Virus record (IMG/VR): IMGVR_UViG_3300023371_000083
Source of the DNA: a virus
Taxonomy: Duplodnaviria; Heunggongvirae; Uroviricota; Caudoviricetes
Direction: 5' to 3' (one strand)
Length of the DNA stretch: 24,792 nucleotides
Part shown: positions 3,133 to 23,816 of the stretch, one piece after another
Numbering within the stretch: position 1 is the first letter of the stretch
How the letters are laid out: each line of letters begins with the position of its first letter
Translations under genes and position numbers: made by a program
Notes under the pieces: generated by a model
Seen by the model: only the letters and a program-made list of their open reading frames with translations
Database searches by the model: none
Told to the model about the DNA's origin: nothing

Positions 3133-5520
3133 ATGGTAAAAAAATACTGGATTTGTACTGAAGTCCCCACAACAGAAGAGCTGGTATTCACAAAAGATAA
3201 AGCATATCTGGCTGTGAATTTTGCTGATGGCATGATTAAAGTAGTGGATGATGAAGGTGTAGTATTCAATGATTACAAAGATTGCGTAATGACGGAATTA
3301 ACAAATATGGGTTATAAATTTGCAGAAGTTGTAATTCCTGATCATATTGGATATTTTAGGGCGACTGCTGCATCTGAAAAATTCCAGTTAAATAAAGTAT
3401 ATGAAATTAATACAGAAAAAATTGATGTAAATGCAGATCATCCTCTGATGAATGTTGTTACAGATGTAACTCTGTTAAATGAAAATTTTGATTTTTCTAC
3501 AAAAACAGAATTCCTGGAATATATCTCTGCACATTTTAATTCTGATATCACAAAAATTACACCAGCGGATATTGCTGTAATGTGTAATGTTGCAATGAAT
3601 GTCAGATTTGTAAATGGTGATTTTGCTGCATTTCACAACGACACATTGGTAACAGATGACATGGATATCCCTGAATTTACACCTGTTTTTGCAACAAATG
3701 AGGAAATTGCAAATATTAAAAGAGAAATGATTGAATGTTATACAAAATTTAGTCATCCTTGGAAAAATACAGGTGTAGATAAAGAACTTACAAAATGGAA
3801 TATTAATAAGGCGACGCTTCGTGCTATGTTCAAATCCTCTCCTCATTATAATGGAAATCAGCAGTTGGTTTTTAGTGATGAGCATTATAGATTAAATACA
3901 AATAAAAATGCTGGTGCAGATTTTATCAATTGGGTAAATTCTGTATTTGATTCTAATGCATTGCTGGAACCTAAAAGAGTACTTGGTTATACATATGATG
4001 AACTGGCTACAGTAAAAGCATATTACCAGGCTACAATGCCCAAAGTTAAACCCATGATTCAGGGTAATAATTTGTATCTGATGAATTATGAACTGATGAA
4101 AAAGAAACGTGAAGAAATCGACAAAATTGATTACATCATGGAAACATTCCTTGATGAACGCAACACACCAGAATCTATTAAAAAACAGAAAGATTATAAA
4201 CAGCTGATCCGTATTATTATGGATATGAAAGACGAATATATTGATGATGATATTGCAACAAAAGTCAATCATTATCTGCCTGATGTGAGAGCCAGAAAAG
4301 GTCAGAAAGCAACAAAAATCACAGGTAAAATTATGCGTCATTTCGGCATTGACAAATGCACAGATTATAATAAAAAGTTTGCAAAATATGCAGATGCAAT
4401 TAACATTATCAAAATTGTAAGACATACAGTTATTTCTATTCACCCTATGGATTATCTGACAATGAGTTTTGGTAATTCTTGGAGTTCCTGTCACACCATT
4501 GATAAGGACAATATCAGAAATGGTGGCGGAAATGGTTATCATGGTGCATATTGTTCCGGTACACTGTCTTATATGATGGATTCTGCATCTATTATTGTAT
4601 ATACCGTAGACAGAGAATATGAAGGCAATACATTCTATGAAAAAGATAAAATCAATCGTTGCATGTTCCATATTGGCAAAGAAAAAATTGTACAGGGAAG
4701 ATGTTATCCACAGGCAGAAGATTCTAACGATGAACTGTATAAACAGCTGAGAGCATTGGTTCATAGAACATTTGCAGAAATTTGGGGTATTCCTAATCTG
4801 TGGGTACTGAAAACATCTGGTCTGAGAGATTATATTACAAATAGCGGTACACATTATCCTGATTATTATCATTCCTCCAAATGTAATATCAGTACTTATA
4901 AATTTGCAAAAAATAAACAGGAAGTTGTACATATTGGTGTAAAACCTGTTTGTACATGTTGTGGCAGAGAACATGGTAGATCCGATCATCTGCATTGTTG
5001 TAGAGGTGAACATATTAAAGATGATACAACAGCAACAGATTATACAACAGATGATGTTGAAGCAGAGCCAGAGGCGCAGTATGTATATTGTGAATGCTGC
5101 GATGAAGTTGTAGAAAGGGCGGATGCACATTTAATTGATGGCGAATGGTACTGCGATGATTGTTGTTTCTACTGTAACTATCATGAATGCTATGAAGAAA
5201 GTGATGGCGAAATTTATGTAACTGGACTTGGTTATGTTTGTGATTCTGCTCTCGATAGTGGTTATGTAGATTATTGTGAATGTTGTGGTACATATTATCG
5301 TACAGATGTACTGGTATGGATTGATGGAGAAGATCGTTATGTATGTGACGACTGTTGTTCCAGATATTATACTAGAGATTATTATACAGATGAATATGTT
5401 CACAATGATGATATTAGAATGTGTTGCGTTTGTGACGCACATGTTTATTATGAAGATGGTGAAACAAATGAAAACGGAGAATTTATTTGTAATCACTGCC
5501 TTGAGGCTGAAGAAGATTAA
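3133..5520 (+). CDS. Large phage-type protein (795 aa): central domain with SIHPMDYLTMS...SWSSCH / SYMMD / RCMFH / QGRCYP motifs and C-terminal Cys-rich (CxxC) repeats
   Basis: Long ORF with AGGAGA RBS; the motifs and repeats are visible in the translation; function not established. Confidence 0.85.
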   Translation: MVKKYWICTEVPTTEELVFTKDKAYLAVNFADGMIKVVDDEGVVFNDYKDCVMTELTNMGYKFAEVVIPDHIGYFRATAASEKFQLNKVYEINTEKIDVNADHPLMNVVTDVTLLNENFDFSTKTEFLEYISAHFNSDITKITPADIAVMCNVAMNVRFVNGDFAAFHNDTLVTDDMDIPEFTPVFATNEEIANIKREMIECYTKFSHPWKNTGVDKELTKWNINKATLRAMFKSSPHYNGNQQLVFSDEHYRLNTNKNAGADFINWVNSVFDSNALLEPKRVLGYTYDELATVKAYYQATMPKVKPMIQGNNLYLMNYELMKKKREEIDKIDYIMETFLDERNTPESIKKQKDYKQLIRIIMDMKDEYIDDDIATKVNHYLPDVRARKGQKATKITGKIMRHFGIDKCTDYNKKFAKYADAINIIKIVRHTVISIHPMDYLTMSFGNSWSSCHTIDKDNIRNGGGNGYHGAYCSGTLSYMMDSASIIVYTVDREYEGNTFYEKDKINRCMFHIGKEKIVQGRCYPQAEDSNDELYKQLRALVHRTFAEIWGIPNLWVLKTSGLRDYITNSGTHYPDYYHSSKCNISTYKFAKNKQEVVHIGVKPVCTCCGREHGRSDHLHCCRGEHIKDDTTATDYTTDDVEAEPEAQYVYCECCDEVVERADAHLIDGEWYCDDCCFYCNYHECYEESDGEIYVTGLGYVCDSALDSGYVDYCECCGTYYRTDVLVWIDGEDRYVCDDCCSRYYTRDYYTDEYVHNDDIRMCCVCDAHVYYEDGETNENGEFICNHCLEAEED
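5080..5499 (+). repeat. Protein-level Cys-rich repeats (YCECC...YCDDCC; YCECC...YVCDDCC; MCCVC...ICNHC, plus degenerate units), probably Zn-binding
   Basis: Repeated aromatic-CxxC...CxxC units in the translation of 3133..5520. Confidence 0.75.
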
Positions 5521-5529
5521 GAATATATT
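5501..5529 (+). promoter_or_regulatory. Putative promoter TTGAGG-N17-TATATT upstream of the peptidase
   Basis: Same -10 hexamer and spacing as at 2923-2951, followed by a similar downstream AT-rich motif. Confidence 0.3.
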
Positions 5530-5580
5530 TTTTAATTATATTTAAACTAAAAAATATTGTTATATTTGGAGGGATACATT

Positions 5581-6663
5581 ATGAAAAATACATCTATGGA
5601 TAGAAAAACAACAAGAAAAATTAATAAATTCAAAAGAATCTGCCAGCAGGAACAGATGGAGCTGAAAGATAATTTGGTAAATATTCTGAAATCTCAGGGT
5701 TATAAAAACCCTGTGGTTGCAGATGGTTTTGTTTATGCAAAAGGTGAAGTACCAGTTCTGCTTCTGGCACATATGGATACGGTACACAAATCTCTGCCAT
5801 TTATTATCTCTGTAAAAAATACAGGAAATGGTACGAAACTTTCTTCTCCTCTGGGGATTGGTGGTGATGACCGTTGTGGCATCTTTATGATTTTGGAAAT
5901 TATTAAAGATCTGAAATGTTCTGTTTTGTTTACAGAAGACGAAGAAACAGGTGGCATTGGTGCAAGAAAATTCACAGAAACATCTTATATTAACGATCTG
6001 AATGTAAACTACATGATTGAGTTTGATAGAAAAGGTAATAACGATGCTGTTTTCTATAGTTGTGATAATAAAAAATTCACAGAATTTGTAACAAAAGAAT
6101 TTTTTAAAACCAATTGGGGTAGTTTCTCTGATATTTCTGTAGTTGCTCCAGCAGCAGGTATTGCGGCTGTAAACCTGTCTTGTGGTTATTATAAAGCACA
6201 CACACTTGATGAATATGTCATTTTTGAAGAAATGATGAAAGTTGTTGAAGAAGCAAAGAAAATGATTCAGAGAGATGTAGAAGAACCTTTTAAATATGAA
6301 AAGAAAACATACAGCTATTATGGTTATGGGAGATATTTGGATTATGGCTTTGATGTATTTGATGACTATGATTTCGGCTACAGCGGAAGACTTGGTCGTG
6401 GAAGATATGATTATACAGTGAAAAGAAATGCTTCCGGCACAACAACAAAAGAAAATGAGCAGAAAATGAAAAGATGGTATGTAGAATTTTTCTCTTGTGA
6501 ACAGTATCAGTTTGATGTTGTTGAGGGATATACAATTGCAGATGCATGGTATGAATTTTGCATGATGTACCCCGATGTATGTTATGACGATCTCATTGAA
6601 ATTTATGATGCAGATGAAGTGGAAAGACCTATTGAATATGAAGTAAGACTGGAAAAGATGTGA
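5581..6663 (+). CDS. M28/M20-clan (aminopeptidase-like) zinc metallopeptidase, phage type, with a Tyr/Gly/Asp-rich linker and small C-terminal domain
   Basis: Metal-ligand motifs LAHMDTVH, GGDDRCG, FTEDEETG, IEFDRKG, NLSCGYYKAHT; GGAGGG RBS supports ATG at 5581. Confidence 0.88.
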   Translation: MKNTSMDRKTTRKINKFKRICQQEQMELKDNLVNILKSQGYKNPVVADGFVYAKGEVPVLLLAHMDTVHKSLPFIISVKNTGNGTKLSSPLGIGGDDRCGIFMILEIIKDLKCSVLFTEDEETGGIGARKFTETSYINDLNVNYMIEFDRKGNNDAVFYSCDNKKFTEFVTKEFFKTNWGSFSDISVVAPAAGIAAVNLSCGYYKAHTLDEYVIFEEMMKVVEEAKKMIQRDVEEPFKYEKKTYSYYGYGRYLDYGFDVFDDYDFGYSGRLGRGRYDYTVKRNASGTTTKENEQKMKRWYVEFFSCEQYQFDVVEGYTIADAWYEFCMMYPDVCYDDLIEIYDADEVERPIEYEVRLEKM

Positions 6664-7253: not shown

Positions 7254-7766
7254 ATGAAATGGAATCTTGTTGTTGGTGATGGTTGTTTTTTTGAATCTGG
7301 TGGGAAAAAGAGATATATAACAAAAATTCTAATCGATTCTTATGTTTTAGATGATAAAACAATGGCGTTTAAAGAAAATGTTTTAAGCACAGGTGCTTAT
7401 TTCTCTAAAATGCTGAAAATTCCAATGTTTAGAAAATTTGTAATTCCTAATATTCCAACAGTTTATGTAATTGATTGTGATGGTATTAAAGAATTATATA
7501 AAGGCAAAGAAATTGATGTCACAAATTCTTTAATGAATACCGTATTAAAAGATGTACTTTTAGAAAAAGTAAAGGTTTCCGTTGGAGAACAGATTGAACC
7601 ACCAGAAATTAAAAAATTAAGACGTACTATCAGAAAAGCAGCAAATATTTACGCAAATTATTCTTTTATAAATTCTAATATTTCAAATTTTACAATTAAT
7701 CATGTAATAAATGGAGATATTAGAATGTCTAATTCACTTTATGCACCAATGGATTTATGGGGGTGA
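7254..7766 (+). CDS. Hypothetical protein (170 aa)
   Basis: GAGGTG RBS overlapping the upstream gene end; coupled start. Confidence 0.8.
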   Translation: MKWNLVVGDGCFFESGGKKRYITKILIDSYVLDDKTMAFKENVLSTGAYFSKMLKIPMFRKFVIPNIPTVYVIDCDGIKELYKGKEIDVTNSLMNTVLKDVLLEKVKVSVGEQIEPPEIKKLRRTIRKAANIYANYSFINSNISNFTINHVINGDIRMSNSLYAPMDLWG

Positions 7767-7770
7767 TGAT

Positions 7771-8208
7771 ATGAGTAATAGTAAACTCAGAATTGTAAAA
7801 GTAATGCCAAATAAAAAACCGGAGGTTTGTGAAATTGAACGTGGATTAAAAGATTTACAGGAAATTGTTGATGGTACAATTCAGTGTATTTATCCCTTTG
7901 ATGATGATGTAGGTCTTGTATGCAATGATGACGGTAAACTACTTGGTTTAGCTTACAATAGGGCATTATTTTACGATTGGGATAAAACAGAAATGTATAA
8001 AGAAGTTGACGGGAAACAATATGTTCCTATTGATGATATTTACGACGCTATTGTTGGAACATTTTTTATCTGTAGAACACCGGCAGATAGTGATAAATTT
8101 GAAAGTCTTACAGATGAACAGGTGAATAAGTATTTAACGCTTTTCGCAAGAAAAGAAACGCTTGCAAAAGATATGTTTACAAACCAGTTGTTTATTGTTA
8201 GAGAATGA
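7771..8208 (+). CDS. DUF3846-like protein
   Basis: Pattern P-E-V-x-E-I...LQEIVDGTIQ...LVCNDDGKL-GL-YNR...IVGTFFI...SLTDEQ resembles DUF3846; GGGGGTG RBS supports ATG at 7771. Confidence 0.8.
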   Translation: MSNSKLRIVKVMPNKKPEVCEIERGLKDLQEIVDGTIQCIYPFDDDVGLVCNDDGKLLGLAYNRALFYDWDKTEMYKEVDGKQYVPIDDIYDAIVGTFFICRTPADSDKFESLTDEQVNKYLTLFARKETLAKDMFTNQLFIVRE

Positions 8209-8220
8209 GGTGATTAATTC

Positions 8221-9249
8221 ATGGATTTAAATGAAATCAAAGCAAAAATCTCTTCTGAGGAATATAAATTTCTCAGAGAAAATGAACATTTAGGTAAAAA
8301 TATTATTTTGCTTGGTTTAGGCGGAAGTCACGCTTATGGCACAAATACCCCTACATCTGATTTAGATGTAAGAGGGATCGCATTAAATAGCAAAAGAGAG
8401 ATTTTGACTAAAGCAAATTTTGAGCAGTTTGTTGAAACAGAAACAGATACAACTATTTATTCCTTTAACAAAATTCTTAATCTGTTATCTAATTGTAATC
8501 CAAACACAATCGAAATGCTTGGGCTAAAGCCGGAACATTATCTTTATATCTCTCCAATTGGTCAGCAATTATTGGATAATAAAAAAATCTTTTTATCTAA
8601 AAAAGCAGCATATGCTTTTGGTGGTTATGCGACATCACAGTTGAGAAGATTGGATAATAAAAGTGCAAGGCTAGTTGGACAGGCACAAAGAGAACAGCAT
8701 ATTTTAAATTCAATTTTAAATGCAAAAGAACAGTTTCCAGATAAATATTTTTATCATGAAAATGAATCTATCAATTTGTATTTAGATAAAGCAATTAATG
8801 AAGATTATGAAACAGAAATTTTCATGGATGTGCATTTTACCGGATATCCTCTGAGGGATTACAAGGCGATGTGGTCTGAAATGAATAATATCGTAAAAGA
8901 ATATGCAAAAATCGGGAAAAGAAATGCTAATGCAATTGAACATGATAAACTTGGCAAACATATGATGCATCTTGTTCGGTTGTATATGATGTGCCTGGAT
9001 ATTTTGGAAAGAGAAGAAATTGTTACATACAGAGCAAAAGAACATGAGGAGCTGATGGCAATTAGAAATGGGAAATATCTGGACGATAATAGACAGCCCA
9101 TTCCAGAATTTTATGAAATGGTTGATGAATATGAGAAAAAAATTGAAAAAGCAAAATTAGAAACATCGTTACCAGATAAACCTAATTATAAAGCAATTGA
9201 AGAATTTATGATGATGGTTAATGAAATGGTTGTAAAAGAAGAAATTTAA
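8221..9249 (+). CDS. RlaP-like nucleotidyltransferase (DNA polymerase beta superfamily)
   Basis: GGSHAYGTNTPTSDLDVRG (GS..YG....SDxD), NCNPNTIEML, and KHMMHLVRL in the helical C-terminal domain. Confidence 0.88.
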   Translation: MDLNEIKAKISSEEYKFLRENEHLGKNIILLGLGGSHAYGTNTPTSDLDVRGIALNSKREILTKANFEQFVETETDTTIYSFNKILNLLSNCNPNTIEMLGLKPEHYLYISPIGQQLLDNKKIFLSKKAAYAFGGYATSQLRRLDNKSARLVGQAQREQHILNSILNAKEQFPDKYFYHENESINLYLDKAINEDYETEIFMDVHFTGYPLRDYKAMWSEMNNIVKEYAKIGKRNANAIEHDKLGKHMMHLVRLYMMCLDILEREEIVTYRAKEHEELMAIRNGKYLDDNRQPIPEFYEMVDEYEKKIEKAKLETSLPDKPNYKAIEEFMMMVNEMVVKEEI

Positions 9250-10580: not shown

Positions 10581-11450
10581 ATGCCAGTACATGATGATCT
10601 TGGTACAAGAATGAAAGAATATTATGAGCAGATTCCAAAAACAAAATTAATGAGAAGAATGCCAGTTATTATCCGACTGGATGGCAAAGCATTTCATACA
10701 TTTACAAAAGGATTTCAGAAGCCTTTTGACGAAGTGTTGATGAAATCTATGCAGGGCACAATGAAATATCTTTGTGAAAATATCCAGGGTTGCGTTCTTG
10801 GTTATACCCAGTCCGATGAAATCACGCTGGTTTTGGTTGATTATAAAAAGCTAACCTCTGCAGCATGGTTTGATTATGAGGTACAGAAAATGTGTAGCAT
10901 TGCGGCAAGTATGGCAACTATGGCTTTCAATAGAATTTTTTTGGAAGAGTATGTTGAATTTTGTGGTCGATGTGCAAAATATGATTATCACCATGAGGGA
11001 GATAAAGAGATGTGTCAGAAACTCATGGATACATATAAAAATGCAGTTGACAAAGGCGCTATGTTCGATGCTAGATGCTTTAATATTCCAAAAGAAGAAG
11101 TGACAAACTGTATTTTTTGGAGACAGCTGGATGCAACTAGAAACTCTATTCAGATGGTTGGACAGGCTTATTTCAGTCACAAAGAATTACATCAGAAAAC
11201 TTGCAGTATGATTCAGGATATGCTGATGGAACAAAAGGGTGTAAATTGGAACGACCTTCCACTTTGCCAGAAACGAGGGGTTTGTGCAGTCAAGAATAAA
11301 ATTATTACAGGAAATGATGGAATGCTTGAAATGTATGTATGTCGTGATGACAGCCAGCCTGAAAATGCATGGATTATTGATAAAGAAATTCCTATTTTCA
11401 AAGGCGATGGCAGAAAATATATTGATGAATTAATTTTTATTGGAGAGTGA
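10581..11450 (+). CDS. thg1: Thg1-like protein (tRNA-His guanylyltransferase family, 3'-5' polymerase)
   Basis: RMKEYYE, IIRLDGKAFHTFT, GYTQSDEITL, SIAASMAT..FN, MFDARCF, WRQLDATRNSI; both catalytic Asp motifs present. Confidence 0.93.
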   Translation: MPVHDDLGTRMKEYYEQIPKTKLMRRMPVIIRLDGKAFHTFTKGFQKPFDEVLMKSMQGTMKYLCENIQGCVLGYTQSDEITLVLVDYKKLTSAAWFDYEVQKMCSIAASMATMAFNRIFLEEYVEFCGRCAKYDYHHEGDKEMCQKLMDTYKNAVDKGAMFDARCFNIPKEEVTNCIFWRQLDATRNSIQMVGQAYFSHKELHQKTCSMIQDMLMEQKGVNWNDLPLCQKRGVCAVKNKIITGNDGMLEMYVCRDDSQPENAWIIDKEIPIFKGDGRKYIDELIFIGE

Positions 11451-18514: not shown

Positions 18515-19510
18515 ATGGCTGAACAGTTAAAAATTCTTGAATTATTTGGTGGAATTGGTGCTCCCAGAAAAGCCCTTGAAAATATGGGGTATGACATTAA
18601 ATCCATTGACTATGTTGAAATCCTGCCATTTGCAGTAATGGCTTATAATGCAATTTTTGATAATGGATATAAACCACAGGATATTTGTTGCTGGAATATG
18701 GATGTGGATGTACTGATTCATGGTAGCCCATGCCAGGATTGGAGTAAAAATGGTTTAAATAATGTAAACACAGGTAGATCTATTCTGTATGAAAAAACAT
18801 TGGATATTATCGGAAAAGAGCTTGTGAGAAAACCAAAAGTTGTCATTTGGGAAAATGTTCCCAACTTGTTATCTGAGGGTAAAAAAGTTAATCATAGAGT
18901 TCATCATCAACATTATCTTGATGTGATGGAGGGTTATGGTTATAAAAATTATTATTCTATCTTGAACGCAAGTGATTATGGAATTGCACAAGCAAGAGAA
19001 CGTCTTTATACAATTAGTATTTTAGATGATGTGGAATTTGAATTTCCTGAAGCGATCCCTCTAACAAAAGATATTAGATATTATCTCGAAAAACAAGTGA
19101 ATTGGGATGCATATGCATTATCTGATGCTGAACAGGCAATTTTCTTTAAAAACGATAATGGTGAAATGTGTGTAAGAGAAGCAACAAAAACTGGATATAA
19201 AGTGGTGGAAGAATATGATGTAATTAATGTAGAGTTTCCTAATTCTAAAACTCGTAGAGGAAGAGTTGGTAAAAAAGTTGCGAAAACTTTAACAACAAAT
19301 CCTAGACAAGCAATTTATTATGATGGGAAACTTAGAATGCTGACAGCGAGAGAACATCTCCGTTTAATGGGATTTAAAGATAGAGATTATAACCACATGT
19401 ATAGAAATGGTATCACCGAAAAACAAATTAGCTTCCTTGCAGGCAACAGCATTTGCATCCCTGTATTGGAGGCTATTTTTGGTAAGTTACAGGAAATCGG
19501 GGTGATTTAA
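18515..19510 (+). CDS. DNA (cytosine-5)-methyltransferase, apparently orphan
   Basis: Motif [18 protein letters not shown] (catalytic Cys), VI WENV, VIII QARERL, IX RMLTARE..RLMGF, X AGNSI. Confidence 0.95.
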
Positions 19511-22312: not shown

Positions 22313-23314
22313 GTGATAATTATAAAAGATTTGTGGAATGAATTCATAAATTCTATCGGGTTTGCTTTAACAGCTTTACTTGTTGTAATTGGTTTGCCAG
22401 TCGTTTTGTGTTCGCTAATTGAATTTATAACAAATCCATATATTGTATTTTGGGTGTTGTTATTATTATTAATACTTTATATTTTATACAAGTTAGGATA
22501 TTGCGAATCATCTTGCAATCAAGGAATAATGGATGGCGAATATAAAGATAAAATTGTTGATGAATTACAGTTACATATTTATATGATACCTATTCTTGGA
22601 GGGTTGTATCCTCAATATAACAGAGGGACTTTAAAGGGCGAATATACAGCTGATATTGTTATGATGCAATTTTTATTAGCTTTAAAGAAGCGGTGTGAGA
22701 ATAACCCAAAACTAAAAGATTATTTCTTTAACAAAGATATGATTTATGTTGCTTTTAGAGAAAAATTTTGGCATAAACATAATGATAGTTTTATCCCAGC
22801 CAATCTATATAAATATACTTTATTTTTCTTTAAAAGGAATTTAAAGTGTAGCACAGAAGATGCTGAGAGATATTACAAAAAAGAATTGAATGAGATTTAT
22901 TATAATATTGTAAAAGAATGTCTGGAAACGACCTATTATGGTGTTGGCAAGGTTACACTGAAAGAAGATCTCTCCGGATATACTGTATCGTTTCCATTAA
23001 ATCTTGTGCCACCATTAGAATGGAAATTTTACAAATTTAAATGCACAGAAGATGAAAAAGAAAAAGCAATTCAAAAAGAATGGGAATATATTTTCACTGC
23101 ATCTGATAGATTGCAGCAATTTAAAGAGGAGGCTGATAAATATGTGAAAATGCATTTATCTAATGATGCAGAACGTCATCTTTGCAAGGAAACTAATACA
23201 TCGCTAACTTGCAGGGGAAAATGGAGATTTCCAAGAACTAAAGATTATGATTATAGAAAGGGGATTGGTAATGACGATCAAAACATACAAGTTAATTTAC
23301 AGAAATGGAATTAA
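22313..23314 (+). CDS. Hypothetical membrane-anchored protein (about 333 aa; two N-terminal TM helices); start uncertain
   Basis: Long ORF; hydrophobic IGFALTALLVVIGLPVVLCSLI and YIVFWVLLLLLILYILY; the GTG start sits inside the RBS-like AAGGTG. Confidence 0.78.
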   Translation: MIIIKDLWNEFINSIGFALTALLVVIGLPVVLCSLIEFITNPYIVFWVLLLLLILYILYKLGYCESSCNQGIMDGEYKDKIVDELQLHIYMIPILGGLYPQYNRGTLKGEYTADIVMMQFLLALKKRCENNPKLKDYFFNKDMIYVAFREKFWHKHNDSFIPANLYKYTLFFFKRNLKCSTEDAERYYKKELNEIYYNIVKECLETTYYGVGKVTLKEDLSGYTVSFPLNLVPPLEWKFYKFKCTEDEKEKAIQKEWEYIFTASDRLQQFKEEADKYVKMHLSNDAERHLCKETNTSLTCRGKWRFPRTKDYDYRKGIGNDDQNIQVNLQKWN

Positions 23315-23816
23315 AACATTGGAAGTTATCAAAGAATTTGAATGCAATCTTAAATACGAAAAGATAGAAAAAGATATGTCTGCGGATGAAATGGATAAAT
23401 TAATTGCCCAACTTGTTGATATATTGAATTTACATTTTGACTTAGGATATATGGTCGAAGAATATTATTACATTGTCGCATTCAATAAGTATGATGAGGT
23501 TGTTGGTATTTTTGAAGTGTCTCATGGCATTGATGATTCTTGCCATGCAACACCAAAAGAAATTGTAACAAGATTATTATTAGTTGATGCAAAAAAATGG
23601 ATTGGATTTCATAATCATCCGAGCCAAAATAGAAAACTACCAATAATCAGTAAAATTGATGAGGAAAATTATGAGTACTTATCAAAAATTTGTGATGAAT
23701 TTGGTATTGAATGTATAAATGATGTAGTAGTAACTGGTGGTTTATTTAATTATTACACTTCTGATGTAGACGATCAAGATGATGATAGTTTTACGGGGTG
23801 GATAAAAGATTATTAA
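23271..23816 (+). CDS. JAB/MPN domain protein, RadC-like
   Basis: EEYYYIVAFN, then G...SCHATPKEI, HNHPS...S.ID (JAMM HxH...S..D); AAAGGGG RBS supports ATG at 23271. Confidence 0.88.
   Translation: MTIKTYKLIYRNGIKTLEVIKEFECNLKYEKIEKDMSADEMDKLIAQLVDILNLHFDLGYMVEEYYYIVAFNKYDEVVGIFEVSHGIDDSCHATPKEIVTRLLLVDAKKWIGFHNHPSQNRKLPIISKIDEENYEYLSKICDEFGIECINDVVVTGGLFNYYTSDVDDQDDDSFTGWIKDY

Follow-up and report, generated by a model that had tools for sequence, protein, structure and literature searches.

We analyzed a 24,792-nucleotide stretch of viral DNA (Caudoviricetes; IMG/VR record IMGVR_UViG_3300023371_000083), here called the window, in which a gene for a large protein of 795 amino acids, the Cys-loop protein, is followed by a gene for a zinc peptidase. 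Both genes are conserved and the hydrolase site is intact; the pair is linked across viral loci, fused into one chain in nature, and restricted to mobile elements. It is very likely that the two genes form a functional unit. The explanation we favor, tentatively, is that the large protein may be a cytoplasmic acyl- or aminoacyl-transferase using a cysteine thioester, whose action would be coordinated with that of the hydrolase. Both would act on a host target, probably a protein, in the service of host takeover or counter-defense.

Linkage and natural fusion of the two genes

A preliminary description of this DNA had reported a 795-residue open reading frame (ORF) on the plus strand followed by a peptidase frame, and both are present:

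3133..5520, plus strand: 795-aa Cys-loop protein with a variable N-terminus, a helical region, a GNAT-like core, a zinc knuckle, and an acidic CxxC tail
5581..6663, plus strand: 360-aa clan-MH (M20/M28-type) dinuclear zinc amidohydrolase without the M20 dimerization domain, assigned from profiles and structure alignment

The peptidase starts at an ATG at position 5581, 60 nt past the upstream stop codon and with GGAGG immediately 5′ of it; an alternative TTG start at 5557 would give a protein of 368 aa. Among 71 viral loci seeded with the large protein, the peptidase gene was directly downstream in 65 and near in 3. Of the other 3 loci, 1 had it elsewhere on the contig, 1 was itself cut by the contig end, and in 1 it was not found on a contig estimated to be 90% complete. 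The last of these (L060, 150 kb) has a Cys-loop gene and no peptidase detected on the whole record, a natural exception. Loci seeded with the peptidase (n = 80) had the partner adjacent in 78 cases and near in 2, the latter apparently owing to a frameshift in the tail. The 71- and 80-locus sets overlap and are redundant, leaving 41 pairs at a 70% identity cut-off, and among these the identity of the core falls as low as 24%. The co-occurrence proposed in the preliminary description is thus borne out in both directions (68/71 and 80/80 loci).

Across the 71 loci the peptidase was the sole family recurring in most, and no third gene family was found in more than 38. Inspection of the 30 commonest neighbor clusters recognized no ligase, and no DNA- or RNA-modification gene or envelope gene co-occurred with the pair. 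Extra Cys-loop paralogues were seen in 22/71 loci; nearly all of them retain the Cys, and mostly they share one peptidase. The correlation between the two proteins in a Mantel test (r 0.51) is expected from shared ancestry and was not used as a sign of co-evolution.

A search for longer relatives of the peptidase recovered about 50 clusters of 799 to 800 aa in which the Cys-loop domain (E 1e-41), CxxC repeats, and the peptidase (E 4e-65) form one chain, with the domains in the gene order of the split pair. Since these clusters are near-identical, we count them as one fusion event; one fusion protein is indexed in 474 blocks. The fusion and an element-borne split pair are located as follows:

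L088 10001-12403 and L092 10001-12400: natural fusion, in a very widespread gut element
L108 3723-17393: operon with the split pair in Vescimonas pMM35_02, adjoining an integrase and an excisionase

Neighbors of the fusion include RecD2, a primase-type zinc ribbon, PcfK, PcfJ, an actin-like partition gene, and a SpaA adhesin, with a sortase nearby in one locus; the element also carries a KAP NTPase and sugar-use cargo. We read it as a conjugative plasmid or an integrative and conjugative element; no relaxase was seen in the stretch around the fusion. The pMM35_02 operon encodes a lambda-type exonuclease, RecD, YodL, an AcrIIA9-family protein (probably a PcfK-like gene), PcfJ, and LigA, and ends with the split pair. 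Of 399 genomes sampled from the class to which a Lachnospira metagenome-assembled genome belongs, only 1 had the Cys-loop domain. Together, the fusion, the element operon, and the rarity in hosts indicate that the module is a component of mobile elements without a tie to virion assembly or to lysis, a context that favors counter-defense or host takeover.

A "putative peptidase" is the sole annotated conserved early gene in PhiM1-like phages (PMC6115819), and it is also present in KP34-like phages. The two-way linkage and the natural fusion tie this peptidase to a large unnamed family (more than 2,500 clusters at 50% identity) that offers one testable catalytic residue, in a pair accessible both in cultured 43-kb phages and as a single fusion protein. 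If the pair does modify host proteins, it would represent new chemistry for counter-defense or host takeover by phages and mobile elements.

The hydrolase and the putative catalytic core of its partner

The peptidase had been described as M28-like with a full set of zinc ligands, and this holds. The two-zinc ligands and the catalytic Glu (H64, D66, D96, D97, E121, E122, D149, and H207) are present in 71/71 sequences, 7 of them from cultured phages, and the ligand register matches that of 3gb0 and 3rza. The site is thus as complete as in peptidase T-like enzymes of clan MH (MEROPS M20B, M28; PDB 3gb0, 3rza; PF04389). In contrast to peptidase T, these proteins form a phage-specific clade without the dimerization domain of about 120 residues: query residue 131 aligns with 151, and 178 with 318, of 3gb0. 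The gathering score of PF04389 (M28) was passed marginally (22.7 versus 21.3 bits), that of PF01546 (M20) was not reached (21.7 versus 24.6 bits), and the cut-off of TIGR01883 (PepT-like) was missed by far (39.5 versus 274 bits). The protein matches three phage families (PHROG 34186, 4191, and 21791), and its tail past about residue 240 is variable, Tyr/Gly-rich, and acidic. We consider it very probable that the protein is an active amide hydrolase. A large secreted-looking repeat protein (P0259, 1266 aa) also ends in this minimal domain, which was apparently recruited into a cellular surface protein. Large proviral records gave further peptidase matches, which we left aside as potential host enzymes.

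The Cys-loop protein, which is single-copy in the virus record, divides on the plus strand into the following parts:

3133..3693: variable N-terminal region (aa 1-187), about 17% identical even with the closest relatives
3694..4404: aa 188-424, conserved and largely helical; includes a helical hairpin that varies and, at aa 390-392, the conserved motif G-Q-K
4405..4947: putative catalytic GNAT-like domain (aa 425-605), with a near-invariant residue set
4477..4494: Cys loop; its Cys453 (codon 4489-4491) is by conservation the candidate nucleophile
4951..5001: conserved C-C-H-C knuckle (C607, C610, H614, C622/623), predicted to bind zinc
5089..5517: optional acidic array of 7 CxxC repeats, seen in the sequence

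A word search gave 653 homologues and a profile search 2,515 clusters at 50% identity (E ≤ 1e-3). The polar motifs of the preliminary description start at residues 435, 449 (nucleotides 4477-4494 exactly), 479, 509, and 521. They are not a chance observation, because homologues are numerous and the motif columns are the conserved columns. Identity with close relatives is 69% in aa 426-545 and 17 to 50% outside the core (17% at the N-terminus, 34% in the tail).

About 20 core residues, mostly polar or aromatic and including the Cys, are near-invariant among 256 homologues. S435, G447, W450, G476, S479, Y480, D483, R509, Y525, and R540 are kept in all 256; D440, S452, K506, R523, P526, W557, and D577 in 255; and Q521 in 253; S445 and Y490 also belong to the set. 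The earlier proposal depended on the SC motif being kept, and C453 is present in 254/256 homologues and invariant in 148 sequences at <68% identity. Ser-Cys-His as a fixed triad or Cys-His pair does not survive the comparison: the histidines vary (H454 237/256, H513 229/256, H574 232/256), with Q, M, Y, or C replacing H454 and H513, and the 256 homologues lack the invariant catalytic His of Cys-His(-Asp) triad enzymes such as papain-like and transglutaminase-like proteins.

Outside the core, the knuckle residues C607/C610, H614, and C622 are kept in about 240 to 250 of 256 homologues. The protein has 8 CxxC motifs in total, 1 adjoining the core (C607/C610) and 7 in the variable acidic tail (aa 653-789); aa 626-795 contain 28% Asp+Glu versus 4% Lys+Arg. 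The C-terminal CxxC array reported earlier is therefore real but optional, its copy number ranging from 0 to 8 or more across the 41 dereplicated pairs. In two loci (L003 7437-8891 and L009 7398-8777) the CxxC tail runs on in another frame, apart from the core, either through sequencing error or through a natural frameshift. The N-terminal region is missing in some members and replaced in others by short modules that look by eye like SH3/KOW domains and have no Pfam match. Neither the large protein nor the peptidase has a clear membrane segment.

Searches of Pfam, PHROG, NCBIfam, PADLOC, and PDB sequences returned nothing significant for the large protein, and the PADLOC defense profiles matched neither protein. 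The domain model of the core is confident, with the order strand-helix-helix-three-strand-helix found in GNATs, and about 45 of the top 50 VIA-align rows for it were GNAT-fold proteins; its best solved neighbors were nearly all GNATs. The model gives weak support to a GNAT-like fold, which we judge reasonably likely. The resemblance is to the superfamily that includes AAC(3)/AAC(6′), RimI, Gcn5, VipF, the tRNA-dependent FemX/FemA and ATE1, and the phage proteins Rac and Mom; Rac acetylates the RNA polymerase alpha subunit and triggers its cleavage, and Mom acylates adenine (PMC7824862). GNATs have the motif A acetyl-CoA pyrophosphate loop (Q/R-x-x-G-x-G/A), whereas in the Cys-loop family only 4/147 sequences show it after strand 4 as placed from the secondary structure of the model. 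When the whole 439-aa model was used for a fold search, the helical hairpin dominated the matches, and the top named Atlas match, to small "EcoRI methylase" clusters (0.91), came from an inconsistent family set that the tool flagged as probably wrong.

These results give some weight to the transferase half of the earlier suggestion of a Cys-dependent transferase or ligase. The ligase half found no footing: no ligase, ATP-grasp, glutamine amidotransferase, or GGCT was detected in the large protein (Pfam, NCBIfam, PHROG) or recognized among co-occurring families. The amidoligase-2 and phiEco32-like COOH-NH2 ligase neighborhoods, which are phage clusters for peptide chemistry, are thus a conceptual analogy only. 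PcfJ (PF14284), a neighbor on the same elements, has a conserved Cys past a short helix, a motif order that is similar by eye, and a weak Atlas feature score (0.82-0.85); its motif is H-C-V as against S-C-H here. An hhalign comparison of shallow profiles gave no significant support for homology to PcfJ (P 0.35-0.37), and this genome has no PF14284 match. GNAT-like and clan-MH folds are known kinds, and their combination, with the cysteine loop, is undescribed; we found no account of the pair in the literature, our coverage of which is incomplete.

Relatives in cultured phages

Early gene pairs of several cultured phages, none with a published function, resemble the pair studied here. In the Enterococcus phages EF1, EF5, H1, and VRE9, early pairs (PHROG 18912, 29713) lie beside a homologous peptidase, as in the window, and EF1-type phages have three true paralogues around it (EF1 homology E 5e-15 to 3e-9). 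A homologous peptidase also adjoins in Drulisvirus KP34/fHe-Kpn01 (g12-g13), PP16 (gp10-gp11; PHROG 13313), and Cellulophaga phage phi38:1 (gp37-gp38), and in PP16, Kpn13, fHe-Kpn01, and phi38:1 it is flanked by a large acidic-tailed protein. Profiles, including iterative searches, do not link these podophage and phi38-like partners with the Cys-loop family, and their kinship extends to position and motif only. The ordered pattern S/T-C...R...Y...Y-x-D was found in 136/140 family members, 118/120 phi38-like proteins, where Met follows the Cys, and most podophage partners, compared to 1/271 background ORFs; having been designed after the phi38-like and podophage sequences were seen, it is suggestive only. 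In Drulisvirus and Corkvirinae podophages the genes for these positional partners map to the early region, ahead of the primase, and in Drulisviruses the partners share 57 to 82% identity versus about 96% for the peptidase.

The genes of fHe-Kpn01 are placed as follows:

L232 113-3299: fHe-Kpn01 g12-g14

The products of g12, g13 (the peptidase), and g14 were found in glycerol-gradient-purified particles by liquid chromatography-tandem mass spectrometry, in which primase, helicase, and polymerase were not detected (PMC7291057 Table S2). This signal, from a distant relative, may reflect packaging or the carry-over of an abundant complex. The start of g14 resembles the short SH3/KOW-looking modules fused N-terminally to many Cys-loop proteins, which hints at a third, sometimes fused component. 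The toxic Gp10 of fHe-Kpn01, a 69-aa protein, belongs to another family.

In P23-45, P087, and Tsamsa a peptidase homologue is present and no partner is apparent. Whole-record searches of these phages, phi38:1, and Jenst for the Cys-loop domain were empty, a weak negative given that phi38:1 has a motif-level partner. Gp21 of Brevibacillus phage Jenst (L087 1704-3104, minus strand) is 466 aa long and contains an S-C motif and DnaJ-like Cys repeats; its gene lies 1.7 kb from that of the peptidase and points away from it. A 466-aa protein of the sister phage SecTim467 was a weak BFVD structure match (E 0.058).

Possible functions of the pair and its surroundings

We propose that the two genes would form one cytoplasmic two-enzyme unit, deployed on cell entry by phages and some conjugative-type elements. 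The large protein would be a divergent GNAT-fold acyl- or aminoacyl-transferase, non-standard with respect to acetyl-CoA binding. Its Cys453 would probably carry the acyl group as a thioester before transfer to an amine on a host target, which is most likely a protein. We lean toward catalysis through C453; like the strengths given here to the GNAT-like fold and to the functional unit, this is judged and not calculated. What donates the group, which protein receives it, and what the pair is for are likewise proposals. The target might be chosen by the interchangeable N-terminal modules, the helical insert, the acidic zinc-ribbon arrays, and the extra paralogues. The zinc hydrolase would share this amide chemistry and act in coordination with the transfer, by freeing the acceptor amine or the donor, trimming the added group, or stripping it from the element's own proteins, and the purpose would be host takeover or counter-defense. 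Taken at its widest, this proposal would make the pair an undescribed covalent-modification system, widespread in phages of Bacillota, Pseudomonadota, and Bacteroidota and in conjugative elements. Its GNAT-like enzyme, lacking the CoA loop but equipped with a thioester Cys, and its dedicated zinc hydrolase would jointly set and revise a new type of mark on host proteins, disarming defense or redirecting the cell. Exchangeable zinc-ribbon and SH3-like modules would diversify the targets, and the particle might carry the unit. We regard this wider reading as possible but less likely than not.

The missing CoA loop could alternatively mean that the large protein has no catalytic role and serves the peptidase as an adaptor or activator, delivering host substrates to it, with the Cys as a structural residue or metal ligand. 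The GNAT fold is used for binding in PanZ/PanM, and a peptidase that lacks its own dimerization and specificity domain, can occur alone, and stays nearly constant in Drulisviruses while its partner varies would suit such a role, as would swappable accessory modules and several paralogues per peptidase. However, the core is the most conserved part and has many invariant polar residues resembling an active site, and the binding face of adaptors is usually variable, so we consider this unlikely. Strict opposition between the two enzymes, as writer and eraser or toxin and antidote, is less likely still: the large protein would place a growth-arresting mark on a host protein, to be removed by the hydrolase for timing or to protect the element. 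GNAT/M20 protect-deprotect pairs such as ArgA/ArgE are known, and the Cys-loop gene almost never occurs without the peptidase while distant peptidases occur alone; but coordinated steps account at least equally well for the fusion, found in an element that is stably carried, and paralogue numbers are unbalanced.

Lower again we place a nucleic-acid target, either DNA bases bearing a Mom-like acyl or aminoacyl adduct that the hydrolase matures or a modified tRNA. Zinc ribbons are often nucleic-acid binders, RlaP, Thg1, and 13 tRNAs are present in the window or genome, and RecD, primase-like, and ligase genes accompany the pair on elements; Mom itself is a phage GNAT precedent (PMC7824862). Against this, the zinc-ribbon tail is strongly acidic, and nucleic-acid modification genes are missing from the company of the pair. 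Fem-like modification of cytoplasmic peptidoglycan precursors with peptide trimming, for superinfection exclusion, which corresponds to the cell-wall possibility raised in the preliminary description, is very improbable. A single GNAT-like domain is seen, Fem proteins are not known to have such a Cys, and envelope genes do not travel with the pair. In addition, lytic podophages of Gram-negative hosts and phages of Bacteroidota, for which peptidoglycan is not the receptor, have relatives at the motif level.

The window comes from a linear virus record of 82 kb whose completeness is estimated at 64%; the record is present in metagenomes of animal feces and gut, and no RNA data set was among those listed for it. 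A scan for promoters and terminators gave signals at chance level only. Among the ORFs of the window, structural-looking genes are on the opposite strand, and the enzyme pair sits in an arm of small same-strand genes. Other features, all on the plus strand, are:

1125-2231: AAA/nSTAND3-like ATPase
7711-8208: DUF3846
8221-9249: RlaP-type nucleotidyltransferase (PF10127, Pfam)
10581-11450: Thg1 tRNA-His guanylyltransferase (PF04446, Pfam)
18515-19510: C5 cytosine methyltransferase
23247-23816: RadC-like JAB domain protein

RlaP and Thg1 do not co-travel with the Cys-loop/peptidase pair; together with the tRNA genes and ORFs resembling RtcB and Ro60 by eye, they make up an RNA-repair set typical for large phages.

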